A stretch of 64,000 nt of DNA from Candidatus Woesearchaeota archaeon. GTDB lineage: Archaea > Nanobdellota > Nanobdellia > Woesearchaeales > GW2011-AR9. The position numbers and the translations under genes were made by a program. This document shows positions 4,032 through 60,742 of this stretch, in pieces. The stretch lies in NCBI GenBank assembly GCA_018302605.1, contig JAGVZN010000010.1, forward strand, positions 65,013 through 129,012, in the 5' to 3' direction. The notes beneath the pieces are model-generated. The model was given only the letters and a program-made list of their open reading frames with translations, was not told the origin of the DNA and did not search any database. The number at the start of each line of letters is the position of its first letter. Positions within the stretch are counted from its first letter, which is position 1.

Positions 4032-4125
4032 GCGGCTGTCGTATAACGGCTAGTATTTGGGACTGTGGAACCTTAGAGGTCGCAGCTATCCCGAGACGGG
4101 AGTTCGATTCTCCCCAGCCGCCCCA
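4032..4125 (+). tRNA. intron-containing tRNA; hand fold gives anticodon GTG (His-like, G-1 at 4031, C73 discriminator, CCA encoded)
   Basis: Acceptor gcggctg/cagccgc. D-stem gtat/gtat with GU pairs. Anticodon stem tggga/tcccg with loop ctgtgg followed by a ~19-nt insert. T-arm gggag-TTCGATT-ctccc. Confidence 0.5.
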
Positions 4126-4805
4126 TTTTCAATTTGTTGAGGTAAAATCATTATGGAAACAAGATACTTACAAGATAGATTCAGAGTTCAGGGAGGTGAA
4201 ACGCTGGTAGAGGAAGTAGAACGTATTTTGAGCTCGATAAGTCTTTCGTATGCCCTTTTCCGGTCAATCCACGTTCCTTTTGTTGATGTAACCGTCGTGA
4301 ATGGTTCTAGCTGTCACAGATCCGGAAATACCTATCTCCAACCAACAACTACTCTTATTTACGAGTACCCCGAAGGTTCGGTTGTCGGCCAATTTTTTCC
4401 AGAAAAACGCATACCCATGCGTGATGTGAATAATGTTGAAAGAGGACGTTGTGCTGGTCAGTTACTCTACCTCCATTTACCCCCACGGTTGACTGAGCTC
4501 ATTGATGATTCTCTGCCTTTGATACGAAGACAAGACCTCTGATTTGTTTGATACCCCGCCGCTTGCTGCGATTGGGATAGCCTCGGCCTAAAAAAGTTTA
4601 TTTTTCTTTTTTCTTTCAAAACATTTAAATAGAATCGGTGATTTTAAGTATCAATGATAACTCAAACCGGTAGTGATTGCCTTCATTGGCAGTACTGATT
4701 TAGCTAGTTATCAGAATATTCTTTTTGTTGAAAATTTAAGTGTAGATGGTTTGCTGTTCTCTAAACATCATCAGTAGGGCTTGTGCCCCTTAAGATTGTT
4801 TTTAT

Positions 4806-8735: not shown

Positions 8736-8905
8736 GTACGTATTAAGTCTGTGCTGGGCGGGTCAGCCTGCCTCCTCTCGCTTTGATTGTTTTCTTACAT
8801 CTTTTGAGAACTCTTTTCAGAGATGCGCGAGAATCTAACCTTTAGTCCAATAGCAACGCTCGGCAGGCCATCTTGACCCTGCCCACACAGACTTAACTTA
8901 ATACA
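8736..8905. repeat. ~170-nt element with ~25-bp terminal inverted repeats (MITE-like or structured RNA), copy A
   Basis: 5' GTACGTATTAAGTCTGTGCTGGGCGGGTCAGCCTGCC ... 3' GGCAGGCCATCTTGACCCTGCCCACACAGACTTAACTTAATAC. The arms are reverse complements. It is homologous to the copy at 60587-60742. Confidence 0.55.
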
Positions 8906-8918
8906 TTCGCTGTCGGAT

Positions 8919-10391: not shown

Positions 10392-10592
10392 TCTTCTAAT
10401 CAAGTTCCAGATAACCTCACTTAGTCTCAAATTAAAGAAAATCCTGAAGAGCGACTATCCCCAACCCTGAAGGGTGGGGATTTACGCCGCTCTTCCGAGA
10501 CGGATTTTCTAAAATGAAATGTAGCGAAATCAATCGCAGCATTCATCCCCTACTATCAATAGTGGGGATTTCTGCTCATTTCATTTAAACAA

Positions 10593-11678: not shown

Positions 11679-11902
11679 TTTCCAGAAGAAAAGTGAACAT
11701 CCTTTTTTAATTTTTATGAAAGCAACGGCTTAGTGGAAAAAGTCCCCCTGGCCATTGACCGTGGCGAAAACCAGCCGTGTTCATGGCTGCAGAACAGACC
11801 ATTCAATCTTATCATTTTCGCACTTGTTCCTGTCGATCGCTTCTCACGGTCAATCTTTAGGCCAAGCGGACGACTTTTTCTACTAAGCCGAAAGCAACTT
11901 CT

Positions 11903-13767: not shown

Positions 13768-13882
13768 AAGCTTACGGACGGCCATAGGGGCGCTTGTTAC
13801 CCGTTCCCATTTCGAACACGGAAGTCAAGGGCGTCTCCGTATCGGATTGTACTGCATTCCGCGGGAACTCCGGTAAGCTGTC
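13768..13882 (+). rRNA. rrn5: 5S ribosomal RNA (stand-alone)
   Basis: Contains CCCGTTCCCATTTCGAACACGGAAGTCAAGG (the universally conserved 5S loop/helix segment). Helix I pairs AGCTTAC (13769-13775) with GTAAGCT (13873-13879). Confidence 0.65.
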
Positions 13883-13980
13883 CACCTTTCTTTTTCTCTT
13901 TCTTCCTTTTTTTCTCTTTCTCGCGATTAAGCGAATGGAATGAGCGCATATCGCTTCGCTTTTCAAATGGTGTGACATTT

Positions 13981-14008
13981 GCGCAGGAACTCCGGTAAGC
14001 TGTCCACC
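13981..14008 (+). repeat. duplicated copy of the 5S rRNA 3' terminal segment
   Basis: GCGCAGGAACTCCGGTAAGCTGTCCACC repeats the 13861-13886 sequence ~120 nt downstream. Both copies are followed by pyrimidine-rich TTTCTTTTTCTCTTTC tracts. Confidence 0.5.
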
Positions 14009-14060
14009 TTCTTTTCTCTTTCTCCATACTTTTATATAATCTCCAGAATTAAAAGTCTGC

Positions 14061-14960: not shown

Positions 14961-15016
14961 AGTTCTCCCAGAAGTGCAGGATAAACAAATACAATATTCA
15001 CGATATCTGTTTTTCT

Positions 15017-15063
15017 GTATTTGTTTAGCTTTTCCGGCAGGCCGTGAGTGAGAGCGGAAAAAC
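15017..15063 (+). repeat. conserved ~47-nt intergenic motif (GTATTTGTTTAGCTTTTCYGGC...GGAAA), copy 1
   Basis: TGTATTTGTTTAGCTTTTCCGGCAGGCCGTGAGTGAGAGCGGAAAAAC. Contains the hairpin TTTTCCG...CGGAAAA. Related copies at 25041, 42138, 60525 and a partial copy at 31264. Confidence 0.6.
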
Positions 15064-15308
15064 AGCAAGTTCCTCACTTCAGAACAAGTCGGGGAACGAA
15101 CATTTTCCGCACATTAATCTTTGATGAGAAGTTTGAATAATTCAATTATTGATTTACAAACTTTTCAAGAGGAGGTGAAATAGTCGTAATTTTGGCTTGA
15201 ACCAAACGACTTATTTGCCAAAATTACTCTTTTTCAAACTCCTCTGATGTAAAGCTCTTATCTCACTCACTATTTAGCCCAGCCGCCAGCTAAAAAAATA
15301 CGTTTTTC

Positions 15309-15572
15309 TTACGGATATGCGCGCACGAACTCATCCAATCGCTTGCAACGATCAACATGAACTTTTCCATCCTCAATAAAACCAACATTATTCTCGGGGT
15401 TGCAGTCAAGAATATCCCTCCCCTCGGCAATGAGAGTCCTCCCTGGTGAACCTGTCGAGCTGTACGCGATAAAACCGTTTTCTTGGAGATAGTGTTTGAA
15501 TGCTGGTAATTCCAAAATTTCTTTACCTGTGCCGGGTGTTCCAAAAAAATATACTGTTCCAATCTGTTCCAT
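15309..15572 (-). CDS. hypothetical small P-loop protein
   Basis: 87 aa with Walker-A-like FFGTPGTGKE. Short, with overlapping alternative frames, so possibly a gene remnant. Confidence 0.25.
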   Translation of the reverse strand: MEQIGTVYFFGTPGTGKEILELPAFKHYLQENGFIAYSSTGSPGRTLIAEGRDILDCNPENNVGFIEDGKVHVDRCKRLDEFVRAYP

Positions 15573-15733
15573 TCGTCAGCGTGGATATTCATTCTTTAAT
15601 AATGATTTCTCTACTTTAGACTATACTTTACTGCTACTCTGGCGGGGTATTGAGTGCTTGTCTTCACTTTATCTTCCCCTTATCCTCTCTACTATCCAAA
15701 ATTATTTAAAGCCTCTCCACCCCAAGAAATCTG

Positions 15734-25040: not shown

Positions 25041-25088
25041 GTATTTGTTTAGCTTTTCTGGCAGGTCGTGTATTCGAATGGAAATATT
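25041..25088 (+). repeat. conserved ~47-nt intergenic motif, copy 2
   Basis: CGTATTTGTTTAGCTTTTCTGGCAGGTCGTGTATTCGAATGGAAATATTT. Confidence 0.6.
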
Positions 25089-27058
25089 TACGAAAAGAAA
25101 TAGAAAATCCCATTAAAGAACATTTTGATCTTTTCTCCCAAATTTCTGGCCTTTCCCGGCACAATCACCTGCTTTTCCAATGAATAGGTTGTTCCTTCTT
25201 CATCTTTCCATACGGCAGTAATGGTTATCTGATTGTTTTTCGTCAAAGGAAGGTTCTCCAGCAGAAATGGCAGTTCTATCTTTTGGGAAAGAACTTCTAT
25301 CTCCCAGTTATGCTCCAAACCGGGAAGTTCCAGCGTCAATAAGACGTTTCTTGGTGGCGAGAAAGATTTTTTATCCACGATGAGAGTCAGTGTTTCTGCT
25401 TGTCCAAAAGTCAACTCTGCCGGAGCATCGATCTCCACATTTAATTTTGGGGCGTCGATCACGGAATATTCAAATACGGCTTTCTTTTCTACTTCCTCAT
25501 TTTTTGCCGTAATCACCATTTTTTTCTGTCCGGCTTTTTCTCCCTCGAGGGTTATTTCTTTCTTTCTCTCTTGATTCAGCGGAAGATCAAATATCTCGCA
25601 GACATCTCCCAGACAGAATTCCAAGTTGTGGAGGTTGATCGTTCCGCGGTTGCGGAGTGAACAGGCGACCTTTCCCTGTTCTCCTAATTTTAAAGTGCGG
25701 GGGTAAGTGCAATCAAAAGTAATCTTGCGTGAATAGGTCTTTTCTTCATCAGCTACGACCAGCTTTTCAATCTCTTCCCTCGAATAGATCGTTCCTTCCT
25801 GCTGCATGCTGAAACTTCCTTCGGTAGTAATATTTTTTTCAGAATAGATCAGCACAGGGAAAGTATAGATATACGTTGATGGCAGATTTCCGGGTGTTTT
25901 AATCACCCATGATGTTTCACGCACCTCTTTAGGGGCGAGAAGGATTGTTCTCTTGTTTCTGCCGGACACTTCTATCTCCTGAGGAACTGCCAGCGTCAGC
26001 GTCGTCGCCGCATAATATTCTTCCGTGTTCTTGAGGACTCCTTTGATCAGATTATAGCTTCCTGGCCCGACATCTCCATCGAGGATCTCTTGTTCCAGCT
26101 GGATTTTTTCCGGGATGAATGAGCCTTTGTTTACGATGGAAAGATCAAAATTAAGCATTTCCGCTTTCAGATCGACATTTTTACCCAGCCATTCAAAGAG
26201 CGTGGCCGGTTCCGTCGGATCAAACCCATCCCTCAGCTTGATGTGCGTCACGTCAACGTAACCGTATTCGCCAAAAGTAATATCAAAACTGACCCAGCCA
26301 ATGTTGGGAAAATAAACTTCTGCCCAGCCATGCGGCTGCCAGGGTTCAGCAAAGAGCGGGGATGTGGTATGGCTGATTCCCGAGACAAAGCGCGCCGGGA
26401 TTCCCAAGGAGCGGGCCATGGCCACAAATAAAGAAGTCATCTCGTCACAGACGCCTTCCCGGTGTTCTAATACCCAGCTTGCAGGCAGCGCTGCCGTTTC
26501 TGTGATTGTATTCAAGTCGTAATTAACATTTTCTTCAACCCAGCTGGCCAATTTGAAAGAAACTTTGAACAGATCTTCTTCTCCTTCCGCCAGTTCTGTC
26601 GCTTTGGCAATAATCGTCGGATTGTCAGAATCGATCGTCTTTGTCGGCTGAAGATAATTCTCATAGCCTTGCACGTCCTGGTCGGTCAAAGGATAGGGAA
26701 TCTTTGTGGTGATCTCTACTTGCCGATTGTCCGTCTGGATCAAAGCCGTATATCCATAATTCTTCTCTTCTAAGCGTCCATCATCCCATTCAAAACCGAT
26801 AAATTTTCCATTGGGCAGGCCGTCGCTGTCTAGATTCGTTACTTTCTGGCGGAGATCATCGCGGGGAAACAACAGTAATTCTGCCGAAACTTCCTGCAGT
26901 GAAGTCGGCGTTCCGGTTGGTATAAGTTCAAATTTTCCATTGACATCCAGCTGAAGCAGCAGTGAATCCTGCTGGTAGAGGGTTTGGGCAGAGGTAAGAG
27001 TGATGGACAAGAAGAGAAAGATAATCCATCCTAGAATGAGAATGGTCGTTTTTTTCAT
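25088..27058 (-). CDS. secreted transglutaminase-like (Cys-protease-fold) domain protein
   Basis: Signal/TM MKKTTILILGWIIFLFL. The catalytic-core Cys sits in GVCDEMTSLFVAMARSLGIPARFVSG, with His in HGWAEVYF. Start set at the internal ATG at 27058. Confidence 0.65.
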   Translation of the reverse strand: MKKTTILILGWIIFLFLSITLTSAQTLYQQDSLLLQLDVNGKFELIPTGTPTSLQEVSAELLLFPRDDLRQKVTNLDSDGLPNGKFIGFEWDDGRLEEKNYGYTALIQTDNRQVEITTKIPYPLTDQDVQGYENYLQPTKTIDSDNPTIIAKATELAEGEEDLFKVSFKLASWVEENVNYDLNTITETAALPASWVLEHREGVCDEMTSLFVAMARSLGIPARFVSGISHTTSPLFAEPWQPHGWAEVYFPNIGWVSFDITFGEYGYVDVTHIKLRDGFDPTEPATLFEWLGKNVDLKAEMLNFDLSIVNKGSFIPEKIQLEQEILDGDVGPGSYNLIKGVLKNTEEYYAATTLTLAVPQEIEVSGRNKRTILLAPKEVRETSWVIKTPGNLPSTYIYTFPVLIYSEKNITTEGSFSMQQEGTIYSREEIEKLVVADEEKTYSRKITFDCTYPRTLKLGEQGKVACSLRNRGTINLHNLEFCLGDVCEIFDLPLNQERKKEITLEGEKAGQKKMVITAKNEEVEKKAVFEYSVIDAPKLNVEIDAPAELTFGQAETLTLIVDKKSFSPPRNVLLTLELPGLEHNWEIEVLSQKIELPFLLENLPLTKNNQITITAVWKDEEGTTYSLEKQVIVPGKARNLGEKIKMFFNGIFYFFS

Positions 27059-27534
27059 TTTCTCTTCAATTTGGATACTATACCTTTGACATCTCCAGAA
27101 ATCATAATCCACTCCTTGTTTTGAACAAAACCCTGAGATAAATACCAACTTAGGGGAAATTTTGTTTTTTTGAAGGTATAGGCATCAAAACTGATTACAT
27201 TATATTTTTGTAATGCTTTCTCATATAACGCAACGGAAAGTTTTGTCGCAATACCTTTCTTTTGGTAATCAGGATGAACAAAAATTTCCCCATCAGAAAG
27301 GTGATTCCCATCCCACCAGGGTTTTATTCCCGCAATAAATGCGCCAACGACTTTTCCATTAAATTCTGCGACAAATGCTAAATCCGGTTGTTTATCAAAC
27401 CAATAAGACAATAATCTTTTGGCGCTTTCACTCGTCCATCTTTCTTCGATATCAAATTTTTGATAAACAATACTATAAATCTCAGCAAGTTGTCGCAAAT
27501 CTTCTTTTTGCATTAGTCTTATTCTGAAATCCAT
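27055..27534 (-). CDS. GNAT-family N-acetyltransferase
   Basis: 159 aa with a VHPDYQKKGIATKL acetyl-CoA-binding motif. Confidence 0.7.
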   Translation of the reverse strand: MDFRIRLMQKEDLRQLAEIYSIVYQKFDIEERWTSESAKRLLSYWFDKQPDLAFVAEFNGKVVGAFIAGIKPWWDGNHLSDGEIFVHPDYQKKGIATKLSVALYEKALQKYNVISFDAYTFKKTKFPLSWYLSQGFVQNKEWIMISGDVKGIVSKLKRK

Positions 27535-27641: not shown

Positions 27642-28253
27642 ATGCACAAAGCCATCGCCTTGCTCTCGGGAGGTATCGATTCCCCCGTAGCGATCCATCT
27701 TTTGAAAGACCGGTTGACGATCATTCCCGTCCATTTCCATCAGATGCCGCTGACCGATGATCGGGAAATTCAAAAATCGAAAGAATTAGCCAAAGCCCTT
27801 CAGTTGGAAAAGATCTATCTTGTCCCCTTTGCGCCGGTACTCAAAGCTTTGGTTGAGCATTTCCCCCACAAAAATTATTATATCCTCTCCAAAATCGCCA
27901 TGCTCAACGCGGCGGAGCTGCTGGCCGAAAAAGAAGATGCGGAATATCTGATCACGGGGGAGAATCTTGCCCAAGTCTCATCACAGACGTTAAGCAACCT
28001 GACCACGATCACCAAGAATGTCTCTCTGGAAATTCTCCGGCCAGTCTTGACTTTTGACAAGCAGGAAATCATCGATCTCGCCAAGAAAATTGGCACGTAT
28101 GACATTTCCAAAGGCCCGGAGATGTGCAGTCTGCTCGGGCCAAAATACCCGGCCACAAAATCAAATCCAGCTGAGATTGCTCGAGAACTGGCTGCTTTTG
28201 ATCTTCTGTCCCTGCTGAAGAAAAGTATTGAGGACGCGGAAATTGCGCGCTGA
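27642..28253 (+). CDS. ThiI-like PP-loop ATPase (tRNA sulfurtransferase family), lacking a THUMP domain
   Basis: LSGGIDSPVA PP-loop and ITGENLAQVSSQTLSNL, both ThiI signatures. Only 203 aa. Confidence 0.6.
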   Translation: MHKAIALLSGGIDSPVAIHLLKDRLTIIPVHFHQMPLTDDREIQKSKELAKALQLEKIYLVPFAPVLKALVEHFPHKNYYILSKIAMLNAAELLAEKEDAEYLITGENLAQVSSQTLSNLTTITKNVSLEILRPVLTFDKQEIIDLAKKIGTYDISKGPEMCSLLGPKYPATKSNPAEIARELAAFDLLSLLKKSIEDAEIAR

Positions 28254-28330
28254 TCTTTTCTAACGCCTCTCCGTACATAATTTATATACGTACATAATTT
28301 ATATAAATAGTCTCTTTCTCTTTCGTCTCC

Positions 28331-31263: not shown

Positions 31264-31283
31264 GTATCTGTTTAGCTTTTCTG
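31264..31283 (+). repeat. partial copy of the ~47-nt intergenic motif
   Basis: GTATCTGTTTAGCTTTTCTGG lies between convergent cysS and the hydrolase gene. Confidence 0.4.
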
Positions 31284-31288
31284 GTAAT

Positions 31289-33733
31289 CTACTCTTTCCC
31301 AATACCTTTCTTAACCGCTTCATACACTTCCGGATATTTCCAGACGTCCAATAATTCTGTATGCAACACTGAAAATGTCGAACACTCGCCTTGCACCAAG
31401 ACCTTTTCTGCACCATCCAATTCTGCATTGCGTTCCAAGACCACGCCATCGCCATCCTCACCATTCATCGCGCAGCCCGTCCCGATGATCGTTGTCACGG
31501 GAAGCGGTGGTAGGATCCCGTTCTTTAATTTGTTCATAAACACACTTTCAGCGTTCATGTCCTGACACTCACGCTGCTCGCCGATGACATCACAATACTC
31601 AGCAACATCGCCTTCGATTCCCTGGTGCGGCGTGCCAATCGTCACCAGCCTGGCGACGTTTCCTGCGCCGAAAATCTGCATGTATCTTCGCGCAACCAGG
31701 CCGCCCATACTGTGGGCAACAAGAATCACTTTTGGCCTTCCCGTCTGATAAACGATCGTGTCCAGAATCTCTTTCAGCCGCAGGGCATAGACATCGATGT
31801 TCTCGCTCTTTGCCTGAATAACGACATAATTCTCCGGGGTTTGCAACAGATCCACATAATAACTCGCTTTCATTGTCAGCGGGACGTTGAACAAGCCGAA
31901 TATTCCTGAGGGCAGGTCCTTTTTCGTGTACATGGAAACCGCTCCGGCATTGACGAACCCATCTTTTTCCAGTTTCAGCTGGATGCCGTTGAACGCATCA
32001 AGACTATACTCATACGAGGTATCTTTGTTAACCGCATGGCCGTGCAGGAAAACGATTGGGTAATAAGAGGCATTTTCCCGGCAGCTTGGTTCCGTACAGC
32101 AGGTCTGACATTGTTGATTTAGGCAGCATTGGGCCGGCGGTTGTTCGAAGGTTATTACTGGCGCTATCGATGTAGAATCACCTGCTGTTTCTCCGGTAGA
32201 AACCGCTTTGGCGGTTATCGGCAGAACCGCAATTCCTGCTTTAATTGGCTCACATTCGGGGGGAATGTTCTCGAGGACTTTGAGAAGAACAGCGGGAGTA
32301 AGATCATACTCTGGGAAAGATGGAGTAGGAAGCAGGCGGCTAAAGAGTAATAATTCTCGAAGTACTTTTGTGTTTGGTGCGGCTGGGGGAATTTCTTCTC
32401 TGAGAGGGTTGATTATTTTCTGCTGCGCATTTTCGGAAAGTGTCTTGATTGTTGTCGTGAATTCCTCTGTCGTGGGATAATTCTGGGCAGCTGCCTGTTG
32501 TTGGAGGGTAGGTTTGATGATTGAGTTTAGTGCATGCAGATCGTGGACGGAGGCGCAGGCGGAGGTGAGATTAGCAGGTACTTGCCAGGCAAGTTCTGGA
32601 ATGGTTGGTGTGGTTAGGCAGGAATTAAATTCCTGACACAAGACTATGGCGATACTCTTACTTTGGAGAGCGAGGGAAAGAACATCATGATTGGTTTGGA
32701 CAAATGTCTTATTATCCAGAGCGAAAACTGTTAGGTTGTAGCTCTCGCTGACTGATTGTTTCATCATCAATGGTGTTCGGGAATTAAACGTAACTGTTAC
32801 ATTGTTATATTCCGAGATCGTTTTTTGGATCTCTGCCGCAAGTTCTTTATCGACTACTGTCGTTTCGCTGAGCCTGCTTAATACTTTCCCTGCTTGATCC
32901 ATCGCGCTGATTGCGGAGTTGTACACGTTGAGATTCTGTTCTACGAGTGTTATTGCGGTGGCAATTTTAGCGTGCTGCTCGGGGAAATTAGAGAAAGAGA
33001 TCTTGTTGGTTAACTGCAGATAGTCTTCGGCTAGCCAATAACTCTGCCATCCTTGAAATTGTTGGAAGAGGATAGTATACTCCGCTTCTGCTTCCTGGAG
33101 TGTGGCCCGCAGCGGTTCAACGACGAGCGATTCATTGATTTTGAGGATTGTATTTTTCTGTGATTCTATTGTTTTTTTTGCGGTGGTCAGGTTTTCTGTT
33201 TTGAGAGTTAGGTCGGCAAAGACTATTTCTTTTGCGGCCTGCTCTTCTGCGCTGAGATTATATTCGACCATGACCAGCCGGTTGCGCAGTGTTGGCTTCT
33301 CGTTGGTATGACAGAGAAAAGTTTCCCTGCCGGCACATTCCAGCCGCACCTGTATGGGGATCGTACCGTGGCCTTGTTCCGTGACAGAAAAGGAAACTTG
33401 CCGATCCAAGCCTCGTCCCGGCCGGAGGGTTGCCTGTTCTTCCGCCAGCACCGTTCCATCCACCATATTTTCAACTCGTAACGTACATTCCGCGCTGCAA
33501 AAAGGGTTTGTGGTCACGCTCGCCTTAACGAGGAGGGCTGCTGTTTCTCTTTTGGTTACCTGAAGCAGCTGCGGCGAGACTTCGACTGTCGCCACGACAT
33601 TATTCCCCAAGAGGAAGTTGATATAAAGATAGATCTGCGTCCCGAAGAAAGAGAGAAGAATGATCACAGCTATAATCAATGTTATTGCTATCTTGCGATG
33701 CTCGTTCCAGAACCGGGCCAGCCTCTTTTTCAT
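31289..33733 (-). CDS. membrane-anchored protein with large extracytoplasmic region and C-terminal alpha/beta-hydrolase (lipase-like) domain
   Basis: N-terminal TM. C-terminal YYPIVFLHGH...ILVAHSMGGLVARRY (GxSxG nucleophile elbow), reminiscent of PGAP1/lipase class 2. Confidence 0.6.
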   Translation of the reverse strand: MKKRLARFWNEHRKIAITLIIAVIILLSFFGTQIYLYINFLLGNNVVATVEVSPQLLQVTKRETAALLVKASVTTNPFCSAECTLRVENMVDGTVLAEEQATLRPGRGLDRQVSFSVTEQGHGTIPIQVRLECAGRETFLCHTNEKPTLRNRLVMVEYNLSAEEQAAKEIVFADLTLKTENLTTAKKTIESQKNTILKINESLVVEPLRATLQEAEAEYTILFQQFQGWQSYWLAEDYLQLTNKISFSNFPEQHAKIATAITLVEQNLNVYNSAISAMDQAGKVLSRLSETTVVDKELAAEIQKTISEYNNVTVTFNSRTPLMMKQSVSESYNLTVFALDNKTFVQTNHDVLSLALQSKSIAIVLCQEFNSCLTTPTIPELAWQVPANLTSACASVHDLHALNSIIKPTLQQQAAAQNYPTTEEFTTTIKTLSENAQQKIINPLREEIPPAAPNTKVLRELLLFSRLLPTPSFPEYDLTPAVLLKVLENIPPECEPIKAGIAVLPITAKAVSTGETAGDSTSIAPVITFEQPPAQCCLNQQCQTCCTEPSCRENASYYPIVFLHGHAVNKDTSYEYSLDAFNGIQLKLEKDGFVNAGAVSMYTKKDLPSGIFGLFNVPLTMKASYYVDLLQTPENYVVIQAKSENIDVYALRLKEILDTIVYQTGRPKVILVAHSMGGLVARRYMQIFGAGNVARLVTIGTPHQGIEGDVAEYCDVIGEQRECQDMNAESVFMNKLKNGILPPLPVTTIIGTGCAMNGEDGDGVVLERNAELDGAEKVLVQGECSTFSVLHTELLDVWKYPEVYEAVKKGIGKE

Positions 33734-34224: not shown

Positions 34225-35262
34225 TTATCTTTCTTTTTTTCGATTTGATTTTATTTTCCTTCTAAGCATCAACCAGGCAGGGAGCAGAAAAATCAACAGG
34301 AAAATAAACATGGTCAGAATAAGGAAAGACCTATCTTCTCCACCCAGAAAATAAACTGCTCTGCATCTCTCTTTCACAAAAGTGTGATCATACCATTGGT
34401 CTTCCTCCGTTCCCGCACCGTCCAGACAGCCGAAATATCCGTGATGAAACAGAAATGCGGGGAGCAGCTTTGCCGTCTCTTCTGCTCTCTGAAGCGTCGT
34501 CCGGTTGTCATATTCAAAGACATATTCTGCCACTTCTGCCGGATGGTCGAGAGCATACTTCCAGCCGTTCAATGAAGCATCGACAAAATTCTGGACCATC
34601 TTTGGATCCTCTTTAATAAACTGCGTTGATGCCAAGATCAATCCTCCATGGTCATCAATTCCGTAATCTGCGGCTTCGATGATGTGCAGATCATGCCCTT
34701 CCAATTTCGCGGTGACGGGCAGGCCGAAGAAGGATCCGGCAAAGACATCGACCGTATCGTTATAAAAATACTGCGCATTCTCTTCGATGTTCACGATTTT
34801 GACTTCATTGCGCGGAACTCTGACGTTCTCCAGAACCCTTTCGATAACCGCTCTGCTGAGTTCACTGCGTATGCCGATCGTCTTCCCGGCAAAGTCTTTC
34901 GGTGTCTTGACTATTGAGTTGGCCAGCATGGTAAAGACCACCGGTGATTTCTGGTATACGGCCGCGACTGCTTTGATGTCGTAGCCTTCCGTCCTTGCTG
35001 TTTTTAGACCATCTCGGCTGGCGATGCCAAACTCCGCGCCAGTTCTGAACATTTCTTCTCCGATATTGGTGGTGGAATTGCCTTCGATGAATCGAACATC
35101 GAGATTTGCATCGTGGTAATATCCCTGATGCAGCGCGGCGTAGTATCCAGCAAAAAGAAAATCGTGCTGATAATAGAGCTGGATGCGGATCGGTGTCGTC
35201 TGATGCGCCGCAGACACGAATAAAGTGAACGAGAAGATCAGCAGGATGCCGATGGCTAGCAT
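34225..35262 (-). CDS. NMT1/THI5-like (SsuA-type) substrate-binding protein with C-terminal TM anchor
   Basis: Signal peptide MLAIGILLIFSFTLFVSA. Periplasmic-binding-protein-like core. C-terminal hydrophobic anchor plus basic tail. Confidence 0.55.
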   Translation of the reverse strand: MLAIGILLIFSFTLFVSAAHQTTPIRIQLYYQHDFLFAGYYAALHQGYYHDANLDVRFIEGNSTTNIGEEMFRTGAEFGIASRDGLKTARTEGYDIKAVAAVYQKSPVVFTMLANSIVKTPKDFAGKTIGIRSELSRAVIERVLENVRVPRNEVKIVNIEENAQYFYNDTVDVFAGSFFGLPVTAKLEGHDLHIIEAADYGIDDHGGLILASTQFIKEDPKMVQNFVDASLNGWKYALDHPAEVAEYVFEYDNRTTLQRAEETAKLLPAFLFHHGYFGCLDGAGTEEDQWYDHTFVKERCRAVYFLGGEDRSFLILTMFIFLLIFLLPAWLMLRRKIKSNRKKER

Positions 35263-35322
35263 TTTCTTCGCCGTCCGAGAAGATCAGCAGGATGCCGATG
35301 GCTAGCATTTTCTTCGCCGTCT
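35231..35322. repeat. 46-bp tandem duplication spanning the 5' end of the substrate-binding-protein gene
   Basis: Unit GAGAAGATCAGCAGGATGCCGATGGCTAGCATTTTCTTCGCCGTC(C/T) occurs at 35231-35276 and again at 35277-35322. It duplicates the MLAIGILLIFS codons and separates the upstream ATG (35329) from the ORF by a non-multiple-of-3 length. Confidence 0.65.
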
Positions 35323-41839: not shown

Positions 41840-42110
41840 CTAACCGGAATTGGTTTCAGTGGGGGGGGGGGGGGCAGCTTCCGTGCTGTTCCCGTTATTC
41901 TGGGAAAAATGTTCTTCCAGATAGCGGATGATCTCTCCCGAATCCCCAATATATTTACCATCAATGGAAATGACCGGTACGGTCGGCACACCGCTTCCGA
42001 TCGTGGGGCACGATAATTGCCGTGAACGGCAGTTCCAGCCGATGCAGGACAGCCCGTACTTTTGCACAGAATGGACATTCTTGAAACTGATATAAAGTTA
42101 TTTTTGTCAT
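41840..42110 (-). pseudogene. glutaredoxin-like protein interrupted by a 1-nt frameshift
   Basis: N-terminal frame MTKITLYQFQECPFCAKVRAVLHRLELPFTAIIVPHD. The C-terminal frame continues IGSGVPTVPVISIDGKYIGDSGEIIRYLEEHF. The frames switch at a C4 run near 42004-42007, and removing one C restores a ~85-aa glutaredoxin. Confidence 0.5.
41861..41874. repeat. G14 homopolymer tract
   Basis: Fourteen consecutive G. It lies in the 3' end of the glutaredoxin-like reading frame (encoding PPPP on the minus strand) just downstream of the Lrp gene. Confidence 0.9.
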
Positions 42111-42137
42111 TGTAAATCCGCTGTTTTTTCTATTCTT

Positions 42138-42183
42138 GTATTTGTTTAGCTTTTCTGGCGGGCCGTGCATCTGAGCGGAAATC
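42138..42183 (+). repeat. conserved ~47-nt intergenic motif, copy 3
   Basis: TGTATTTGTTTAGCTTTTCTGGCGGGCCGTGCATCTGAGCGGAAATC. Its hairpin keeps pairing through a C-to-U change (G-U wobble) relative to copy 1. Confidence 0.6.
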
Positions 42184-42300
42184 TGCTACCATTTCATCTG
42201 CATCACGCTGTAGATTAGATGATTTCCGCACCAAGTTAGGAATCACGCATCTTCAGATGCACCGCTTGGCCCAGCCACCAGTTAAACAAATACTCATTCT

Positions 42301-44425: not shown

Positions 44426-44584
44426 GGCTTGTTCCATAGAGCGTTCAGCAGATAAAAAATAAAAATCCCAAGCACCGCAAGCGGCGGGGTATTTTTAATG
44501 TTTAATACCCCGCTCTGCTGTGGGAAGAAAAGTTAACCCCATCGCCCCAAGGGGCGGGGTATCAAACAAATAAAGAGGTGAAAC

Positions 44585-44698: not shown

Positions 44699-45590
44699 AT
44701 TTCTTGCTTGGGTACCATACCCCGCAGTTCTACTGCGATGTTGATTCCAAGCAAGATTAAAAAATACCCCGGAGCTCTGCTCCGATTGGGATTTTTTATT
44801 TTTTTTCTTTATTTTTTGGATGATGTAGTCTTATGTAGACTTTATGCATAAACTCCCCCTCCCGCGCTCTACTATCTCTTGGTAATCCATTTACATTAAA
44901 TAGACCAGAAAGCCTCTTCTTTTAAGATGAGGATGAATGGGCTTTCTAGCCTATTTATGTCACAAAGTGCGGGGATTAGAAAGCGTCTCATGGTTAGAAA
45001 ATAATAAATACCATGATATATTTCTACTCTCCGTGCCGGACACTTCGGTTGTCCTGGAAAGGATGCGTCCATCGCAGCCTCTGTCAGATGTTCACCATTA
45101 ATCGTGTGGCTGGACTATAACTCACGCGACGAAACCTACATTTGGTACGCTTCTTTGATGGCGCGAAGCAGATCACCGTTAAAACAAACCAGTAGGTTAA
45201 GTTTCGATATTGGGCGTTGTTTGCGGCACTCCTTCACCGAGTCCAGAGCACACTTTAACGTATGACTCCAACAACGCGATCAGGCAAAAAAAGAAAGAAA
45301 CAAGGACCTAAATTGCGGCAGAAAAGACCGTCACGAGGTTCTCGTTCTTCCTCTTCTTCTTCTGCGCGGAAAAGCCCCCGTCAGGCTAGTGGTAAAGCCA
45401 AAGATTCTAAAGTGGTGAAATTAGTCCGTCTTTCTAAAAAGAATCGACGGAATGGTTATAATACTTCATTGAAAAAATCCAGCAGATCGCCGTTGTCAAA
45501 ACTGGCTAACCGTCTGCATTCCAGGAAACGACGATAACCGTCATCATTCTCCGGTGGAGGTAACAACAGGTTAGATAGTTGAGATTCTTT

Positions 45591-60524: not shown

Positions 60525-60573
60525 GTATTTGTTTGGCTAGTGGCTGGGCCAAGCAGTGTATCCGAGCGGCAAA
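60525..60573 (+). repeat. divergent copy of the ~47-nt intergenic motif
   Basis: GTATTTGTTTGGCTAGTGGCTGGGCCAAGCAGTGTATCCGAGCGGCAAAT lies directly 5' of the TIR element. Confidence 0.45.
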
Positions 60574-60586
60574 TTTAATCCCCCCT

Positions 60587-60742
60587 TTAAATCGTACGTA
60601 TTAAGTCTGTGCTGGGCAGGTCGGCCTGCCTCGTCTCGCCCAGAAGCAGAGATCAGTTGAACTGAAGAGTTATTCTCAAAGATAAGCGAGACCATTCTTG
60701 ACCAAGCCCGCACAGACTTAACTTAATACGTACTTTAAATCG
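60587..60742. repeat. ~156-nt terminal-inverted-repeat element (MITE-like or structured RNA), copy B
   Basis: TTTAAATCGTACGTATTAAGTCTGTGCTGGGC...GCCCGCACAGACTTAACTTAATACGTACTTTAAATCG. The termini are ~30-nt inverted repeats. Homologous to 8736-8905. Confidence 0.55.

Follow-up and report, generated by a model that had tools for sequence, protein, structure and literature searches.

MITEs are well known in both archaea and bacteria, and what is added here is an IS66-type MITE family of Woesearchaeota. Repeats such as Correia/NEMIS of Neisseria and ERIC, RUP and BOX fold as long hairpins when they are co-transcribed with neighbouring genes, and MITEs of other organisms are sometimes transcribed and processed. 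Among the IS66 elements, a member of the ISBst12 group whose transposition was followed experimentally contains one ORF, inverted repeats initiated by GT and an 8-bp direct repeat; for ISDge4, 8-bp direct repeats and GT-initiated inverted repeats are reported (PMC12898284). In a census of archaeal MITEs, a Woesearchaeal genome was found to be among the densest, with 105 MITEs per Mb (PMC11602168). Within the portion of the census text that was accessible, the present family, its IS66-type partner, its subfamilies and the covariation of its arms are not characterised (PMC11602168), and our full-text literature search revealed no paper that pairs Woesearchaeota with MITEs.

The window analysed here, by which we mean the entire 64-kb stretch of DNA, contains dispersed repeats that the original prediction described as a family of intergenic elements of about 47 nt, found in five places and preferably interpreted as a small ncRNA or a conserved RNA motif. 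In part this holds: the family is real, dispersed and intergenic, it has a conserved hairpin, and the five places and their coordinates are correct. Its unit length is wrong, as the 47-nt motif is just the left arm of a longer element, and the preferred RNA reading found no support. Instead, we conclude with a probability of roughly 0.9 that we are dealing with a 156-164-bp non-coding Woesearchaeota MITE with IS66-type ends, mobilised in trans and preserved both as copies and as decayed fragments. The element is thus an ordinary kind of selfish DNA and not a small-RNA gene family.

How the longer unit is built can be followed from the motif outward. The 18-mer GTATTTGTTTAGCTTTTC has exact occurrences at 15017, 25041 and 42138 and a fourth one, with a single mismatch (17/18), at 31264, each time on the plus strand, where 0.09 matches would be expected by chance in the window against the four detected, and none of 100 shuffles reached four. 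The core GTATTTGTTTA is present on the minus strand as well, at 14982-14992 and 42283-42293, which gave a first hint that the motif occurs as inverted pairs. Scanning one genome per species with the exact pattern led to 19 matches, all of them in the groundwater Candidatus Woesearchaeota MAG JACQNE01. Each of these copies extends over about 160 bp, from GTATTTGTTTAGCT to the inverted motif AGCTAAACAAATAC, and so do the further copies supplied by groundwater metagenomes. If the window, this related MAG and the metagenomes are considered together, intact elements comprise 155-164 bp. Their termini form imperfect inverted repeats spanning about 27 bp, with alignment columns 1-14 and 158-171 paired in 99.4% of cells and columns 19-27 and 146-155 in 94.4%. 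Two subfamilies can be told apart by an internal stem, which reads GTGAGTGAGA/TCTCACTCAC in subfamily 1 and GTG(C/T)ATCCGA/TCGGAT(G/A)CAC in subfamily 2. In addition, shortened forms of 100 and 59 bp with an internal deletion (L013, L015) and variants bearing insertions (L017, L001 and window copy 1) were found. The element is non-coding, since the sole ORF similarity among copies arises spuriously from reading through the repeat.

The inventory of the window was redrawn by nhmmer, employing a profile made from full-length copies. This profile search delivered two complete copies and three remnants (Table 1), so that three of the five copies are broken stubs.

Table 1. Positions of the MITE copies and associated features in the 64-kb window.
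Feature	Position	Strand	Remarks
Lone TAAACAAATAC	14982..14992	-	exact 11-mer, 24 nt upstream of copy 1; profile match absent
Copy 1 target-site duplication, left	15009..15016		8 bp, GTTTTTCT; identical 8-mer on both sides
Copy 1, complete MITE, subfamily 1 (GTGAGTGAGA stem)	15017..15301	+	285 bp
Nested, unrelated MITE-like element interrupting copy 1	15125..15244		about 120 bp; inverted ends GAGAAGTTTGAA…TTCAAACTCCTC
Copy 1 target-site duplication, right	15302..15309		8 bp, GTTTTTCT
Copy 2, left-arm remnant	25041..25086	+	profile positions 1-46
Empty target site, single GAAAAGAT	28253..28260	-	window compared with L013 64-226
Copy 4, left-terminus remnant	31264..31284	+	21 nt; profile positions 1-21; 17/18 match
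Copy 3, complete MITE, subfamily 2 (GTGCATCTGA stem)	42138..42293	+	156 bp; full profile match, 141 bits
Copy 5, right-arm fragment	60525..60588	-	profile positions 95-156

Copy 1 matches profile positions 1-98 at 15017-15116 and 105-156 at 15250-15301, with 15017-15063 as its left arm and AGCTAAAAAAATAC as its right terminus, the last base of which is 15301. Its unusual length of 285 bp is due to the second small element nested inside. This nested element is 80% identical to L001 6739-6859, where it resides within another copy of the MITE at a different position, and its apparent 3-bp duplication is TGA in the window and TTT in L001, the two insertions being independent. Given that an element of about 120 bp was inserted into two copies of the MITE studied here, MITEs are themselves targets for other MITEs. 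The lone TAAACAAATAC upstream of copy 1 may be the last vestige of another copy's end or a chance match. The remnants are situated close to genes: copy 2 ends 2 nt short of the stop codon of a minus-strand transglutaminase-like gene (25088-27148), and copy 4 ends 4 nt from the stop codon (31289-31291) of a minus-strand hydrolase gene (31289-33733). Copy 3 sits between two minus-strand glutaredoxin-like genes and its flanking duplication is decayed (CTATTCTT / TCATTCTC, 5/8). The glutaredoxin-like gene to its left (41840-42170) appears to be split over two frames, with minus-strand ORFs at 41961-42170 and 41840-42067, and may represent a frameshift or a pseudogene; the left end of copy 3 lies about 27 nt upstream of the likely start codon of this split gene. 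The fifth copy is oriented opposite to the other four: its score is 29.9 bits if it is read as a minus-strand right arm, compared to 13.8 bits if it is read as a plus-strand left arm. The claim that all copies reside on the plus strand consequently fails for this copy. The stretch 60525-60565 shows 85% complementarity to the right arm of copy 3 (42253-42293), and therefore the fifth copy resembles the other end of copy 3 and not its start. An element belonging to another MITE family (60594-60733) is located 5 nt away from it.

With the nested element at 15125-15244 included, at least five MITE-like families were found in the 64 kb. A second family of about 140-170 bp is represented at 8736-8906 and 60594-60733, with inverted ends GTACGTATTAAGTCTGTG…/…CACAGACTTAACTTAATAC(GTAC) and an 8-bp duplication, TTTAAATC, at the latter copy; it was detected at five Woesearchaeota MAG loci too. 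Two more families of about 160 bp, at 11726-11889 and 10432-10588, share 81-87% identity with MAG counterparts, and the former is bounded by the inverted ends GGCTTAGTGGAAAAAGTC…/…GACTTTTTCTACTAAGCC, with GAAAGCAA as its duplication. G+C-rich palindromic repeats are found at 4542-4579 and 44465-44571, with GGGGTAT/ATACCCC beside ATTTGTTTGATA and three related arms in the two places. At 35230-35321 there is an exact 46-bp tandem duplication within overlapping minus-strand ORFs, which would shift the reading frame, so that either the duplication arose recently, or the locus is a pseudogene, or the assembly is in error.

The evidence for transposition comes from three sides. For 38 non-redundant full copies, taken from the MAG and metagenome matches listed, the flanks were analysed, and 37 of these have both. 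The flanking 8-mers are identical at all eight positions in 13 copies and at seven positions in another 13 (26/37 at 7/8 or better), whereas control 8-mers offset 20 nt outward reach a maximum of 4/8 identity (0/37 at 7/8 or better). Furthermore, 39 copies among the matches listed fall into 38 unrelated flank clusters, all loci being intergenic. The copies occupy AT-rich spacers at gene ends, often a few nt from stop codons, and the genes next to them are unrelated housekeeping genes that encode, for example, an EamA transporter, a transglutaminase-like protein, CysRS, a hydrolase, glutaredoxin, VKOR, a disulfide oxidoreductase and an M1 peptidase. Finally, an empty target site is available for comparison: at the orthologous gene, L013 comprises GAAAATAT, the 163-bp MITE and GAAAATAT once more, where the window has one GAAAAGAT. 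In its wider context the filled site of L013 reads …GTAGAAAATAT, the 163-bp element and GAAAATATCAGCGCG…, and the window reads …TTAGAAAAGATCAGCGCG…, with the element absent. Between L013 and the window, the gene beside this site has 88.6% DNA identity and 93% protein identity. Taken together, duplications, unrelated loci and an empty orthologous site are the defining marks of a MITE. The genomes of the window source and JACQNE01 are related, not identical, and parts of the window are 99.97-100% identical to the metagenome contigs Ga0209541/Ga0209542. At window position 44989, a contig of the same population (L133 3159-3239) contains about 79 extra bp, with 99.97-100% identity over 7 kb.

Since the MITE encodes no protein, we turn to its possible partner. 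When metagenomes were scanned for the terminus, the matches listed included L047 (1462 bp) and L114 (1665 bp), two elements that possess the same 14-bp termini and one ORF each of about 470 aa matching DDE_Tnp_IS66 (E 2e-30 and 8e-32). For L047, DDE_Tnp_IS66 (106 bits) and zf-IS66 (38.5 bits) both exceed the Pfam cut-offs, and for L114 DDE_Tnp_IS66 scores 111 bits and zf-IS66 25.4 bits, slightly under the cut-off of 27.3. A protein search revealed more than 1,200 relatives, the few named ones being designated IS66 family transposase in MAGs of Euryarchaeota, Methanoperedens and Thermoplasmatota. Six further distinct IS relatives (54-75% identity in tblastn) all end on the right with GCTAAA(C/T)AAATAC, and five of the six start with GTATTTGT(T/A)TAG(C/T) at no more than one mismatch, the left end of L140 not being found. 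Overall, eight distinct IS66-family elements carry the 13-14-bp right terminus of the MITE (8/8) and seven of them its left terminus (at most one mismatch). The terminus of this archaeal IS66 clade is GTATTTGTTTAGC, its inverted repeats begin with GT, and the stop codon of the transposase falls within the right terminus of the IS. Our full-text literature search delivered no paper that gives GTATTTGTTTAGC as an IS end. Duplications of 8 bp surround four of the eight ISs, namely L136 TTTTTTTG, L138 GATTAAAT and L141 AAAAAAAG (8/8) and L145 (7/8), clean ones occurring at IS copies that look intact. The MITE and the ISs hence have the terminus and the duplication length in common.

Some of the IS relatives (L141, L142, L147-L152) possess a 52-aa DUF2080 ORF that overlaps the start of the transposase gene; L047, L114 and L136 comprise the transposase alone, without this ORF. 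Several loci from other metagenomes (L021, L053, L057, L067, L079, L086, L092 and L120) share the 14-bp terminus and have a different interior, which reads GTATTTGTTTAGCTATCGGCGGTC… or …TTTCGGCGG…. Such loci are likely to be separate MITE families exploiting the same IS66 clade, which suggests that this clade gave rise to, or hosts as parasites, several MITE families.

The window copies carry no transposase gene and are thus not insertion sequences, only elements with IS66-type ends. Sequence shared between MITE and IS is limited to the outer 14 bp (about 17-21 bp in some), beyond which the ends differ. As only the outer ends are common to both, the MITE is not a simple internal-deletion derivative of any recovered IS. 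By tblastn, no IS66-family transposase was detected in the window or in about 0.35 Mb of MITE-bearing loci; an all-against-all BLASTP among the loci gave no repeated transposase ORF, and a MITE profile search of the contigs with IS66 relatives found no co-occurring MITE. The ISs with matching termini stem from other samples, and their visible contexts are methanogen-like or other euryarchaeal genomes. Because no transposase is found near the MITE and the ISs come from other samples, its mobilisation is something we infer and do not demonstrate. Judged from its ends, the MITE most likely owes its mobility to an IS66-family transposase. The enzyme, a DDE transposase from the single-ORF (ISBst12-like) IS66 branch, would cut and insert the MITE in trans, an idea that is based on the same terminal 13-14 bp in archaeal ISs of this branch and on the 8-bp duplications at four of the eight. 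L020, in which matching 13-mers about 1.5 kb apart surround a TnpB-like OrfB_IS605 ORF, was attributed to chance, as the agreement is limited to the 13-mers and a duplication is missing. The outward variant ends of L132 and L071, 5.4 kb apart, do not delimit a large element and were interpreted as rearranged remnants, one of them fused to the MITE end of another family.

The hairpin requires a closer look, as it was the main argument for an RNA. It had been proposed that a local helix, TTTTCCG/CGGAAAA (alignment columns 14-20 against 39-45), is kept by compensatory change. Among 36 distinct copies, we found not one of its pairs changed on both sides, its scores equal those of shuffles, and the 47-mer on its own is no more stable when folded than shuffled sequence (z = -0.25). 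Similarly, the C-to-T change had been taken to persist as a G-U wobble, whereas this C/T column pairs with the far right arm and does so in Watson-Crick manner. Column 19 (C/T) covaries with column 155 (G/A), the combinations being C:G in 18 copies, T:A in 12, T:G in three and unpaired in three. In copy 3 the T of column 19 pairs with the A of the far arm (GCCACC); in copy 1 the matching far-arm position is G (GCCGCC), which would pair with C. The consensus structure turned out to be a single hairpin of the whole element. It comprises 44 pairs, 14 of them doubly changed, and 97.2% of its cells are paired. Its covariation score of 0.222 was reached by none of 500 shuffled alignments, which give 0.089, while slid partners give about 0.04. 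Two-sided Watson-Crick changes are found within the subfamilies too (4 pairs in subfamily 1, 6 in subfamily 2), and thus the covariation is more than a difference between subfamilies. Double changes in a single lineage, T4A/A168T and T9G/A163C, occur in the terminal repeat. Copy 3, for example, folds as one long hairpin of -35.4 kcal/mol as DNA (z = -7.0), and since the element is near-palindromic, both strands are able to do so. Of the whole-element pairing, 96% is Watson-Crick, with G·T in 16 cells against A·C in 21. An RNA made from one strand should tolerate G·U and not A·C, and the symmetry observed therefore argues for a cause at the DNA level. Strand-symmetric Watson-Crick pairing, in short, points to DNA rather than RNA. 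The complementarity of the arms might be kept at the DNA level through arm-to-arm correction in fold-back DNA; alternatively, matched or paired ends may be needed in transposition. In either case it would not reflect selection on one RNA strand.

The orientation of the copies was supposed to be independent of the flanking genes. This is not what we observe: copies between co-directional genes are antisense to their neighbours in 20 cases and sense in five (binomial p = 0.004), counts that depend on crude longest-ORF gene calls. Moreover, the gene at the right end of the element converges on it in 28 of 38 loci. Within the window, a confirmed minus-strand gene follows to the right of copies 2, 3 and 4, and the right-hand ORF of copy 1 (15290-15592), which has no family match and overlaps the right end of the element with its last 12 nt, is on the minus strand as well. 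The plus orientation that these copies share is therefore in line with a gene-linked rule. As a conjecture, one idea is that the bias might result from selection against plus-strand T4 tracts inside operons, given that oligo-T tracts rather than hairpins serve as terminators in archaea. T- or A-richness of the duplicated 8-mers was considered as another cause, and by eye no clear asymmetry with respect to element orientation became visible.

In the light of these results, the interpretation as structured small ncRNA genes or a cis-acting RNA motif, with the hairpin as functional product and the copies as paralogs, appears very unlikely. It would fit to the stability of the whole-element hairpin, its many compensated pairs, the orientation bias relative to neighbouring genes and the occasional transcription and processing of MITEs elsewhere. 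However, the local hairpin on which it was built has neither covariation nor excess stability, G·T is not favoured over A·C so that neither strand is privileged, and the sequences upstream of the copies are unrelated, which leaves no shared promoter. RNA gene families are not characterised by duplicated targets, an empty site, deletion derivatives or termini of the IS type, and the frequency of broken stubs in the window speaks against it as well. Rfam gave no match for the repeats at the gathering threshold and none even at E <= 1 over copy 3. Throughout the window, Rfam 15 at the gathering threshold reported only 5S rRNA and tRNA, and ARAGORN found no tRNA-like features in the repeats. The 5S rRNA gene (13774-13886; 54.7 bits) stands alone with a TTTATAAATA box in front, and a 46-nt, 85% identical copy of its 3' end is present 122 nt downstream (13979-14024), past a T-rich stretch. 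The tRNA is a 91-nt Rfam hit (4032-4122; 45 bits) which ARAGORN did not report and which is probably an intron-containing archaeal tRNA. Two early candidates, a promoter motif of the Bacteroidetes type (TAnnTTTG) and a C/D-box or split-tRNA, were abandoned after the genome scan had revealed the structure of an archaeal MITE.

Palindromes of the REP/BIME kind, or hairpin transcription terminators spreading via duplication, would account for intergenic, palindromic copies that often lie right after stop codons, and still this explanation is extremely unlikely. REPs are 20-40 nt long, lack target duplications and rely on a tyrosine transposase of the IS200/IS605 type, whereas the unit here has about 160 bp, 8-bp duplications and IS66-type ends. 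Terminators are contradicted by copies that lie upstream of genes and between divergent genes, and by archaeal termination being driven by oligo-T tracts. The original prediction had itself argued against a simple terminator from one strand being used in all gene contexts, an argument that rests on five copies, one of which is inverted. Of its candidates, the one listed last, recombination sites, came nearest, the conserved GTATTTGTTTAGCT motif being the terminus of a transposon: a conserved 14-bp motif does occur in inverted pairs and is a substrate for recombination, yet for that of a transposase. Sites of a site-specific recombinase (integrase attachment, invertase or dif-like) or operators of a DNA-binding regulator deserve next to no credence. 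Site-specific recombination does not produce 8-bp duplications of an arbitrary target, no recombinase gene or regulon is associated with copies whose neighbours are unrelated housekeeping genes at 38 or more unrelated loci, and the motif bounds ISs that encode a DDE transposase.

Transposition alone does not explain the tight complementarity of the arms, which reaches beyond the likely transposase-binding region, nor the orientation bias. We consider it unlikely, with a small probability worth bearing in mind, that the element is more than selfish DNA. The fold-back itself could be selected, as an obligatory hairpin or paired-end intermediate in the transposition of this IS66 clade or as a domesticated insulator or 3'-end element; alternatively, the transposase that moves the MITE could be one for which the symbiont has no gene. 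The former idea is based on Watson-Crick arms beyond the ends of about 14-27 bp with at least 10 matched double substitutions within subfamilies, and on antisense copies being four times commoner than sense copies in a very compact genome where they fill whole intergenic spacers. The latter is based on the Woesearchaeota sequence searched, in which no cognate transposase occurs, and on matching ISs in euryarchaeal genomes.

Regarding the MITE reading, which we prefer, several consequences can be envisioned. For annotation, apparently 'compensatory' intergenic hairpin repeats of DPANN genomes should not be called RNA genes until inverted ends and duplicated targets have been looked for. In addition, a MITE family of a reduced, symbiont-type archaeal genome becomes tied to a large archaeal clade of single-ORF IS66 elements. 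At least 38 independent insertions, two subfamilies, a deletion series and nesting provide a natural data set on how the arms of palindromic transposons stay matched, and polymorphic insertions are possible strain markers for groundwater populations.

Compared to the ISBst12 group (ISBst12, ISDge4; PMC12898284), the putative partner ISs are similar in several aspects: they have one DDE_Tnp_IS66 ORF of about 450-480 aa, zf-IS66 in both elements scanned (L114 just below the cut-off), repeats starting with GT and, in four of eight, the 8-bp duplication length common to the MITE. The archaeal clade differs by its own terminus, GTATTTGTTTAGC, and by the 52-aa DUF2080 ORF that some members add, and no member was found in the window or in about 0.35 Mb of MITE-bearing Woesearchaeota loci. 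The MITE of the window itself is unlike the group in being without an ORF, one tenth of the size and matching in only the outer ~14 bp. The archaeal single-ORF IS66 clade with its conserved GTATTTGTTTAGC terminus is likely to be the partner of the family. Correia/NEMIS of Neisseria and ERIC/RUP/BOX resemble it in size (about 100-160 bp), inverted ends and a long hairpin, and differ in domain of life, termini, partner transposases and duplication lengths. With prokaryotic MITEs in general, finally, the family shares that it is short, non-coding, multi-copy and intergenic, with inverted ends, target duplications and the capacity to fold back.
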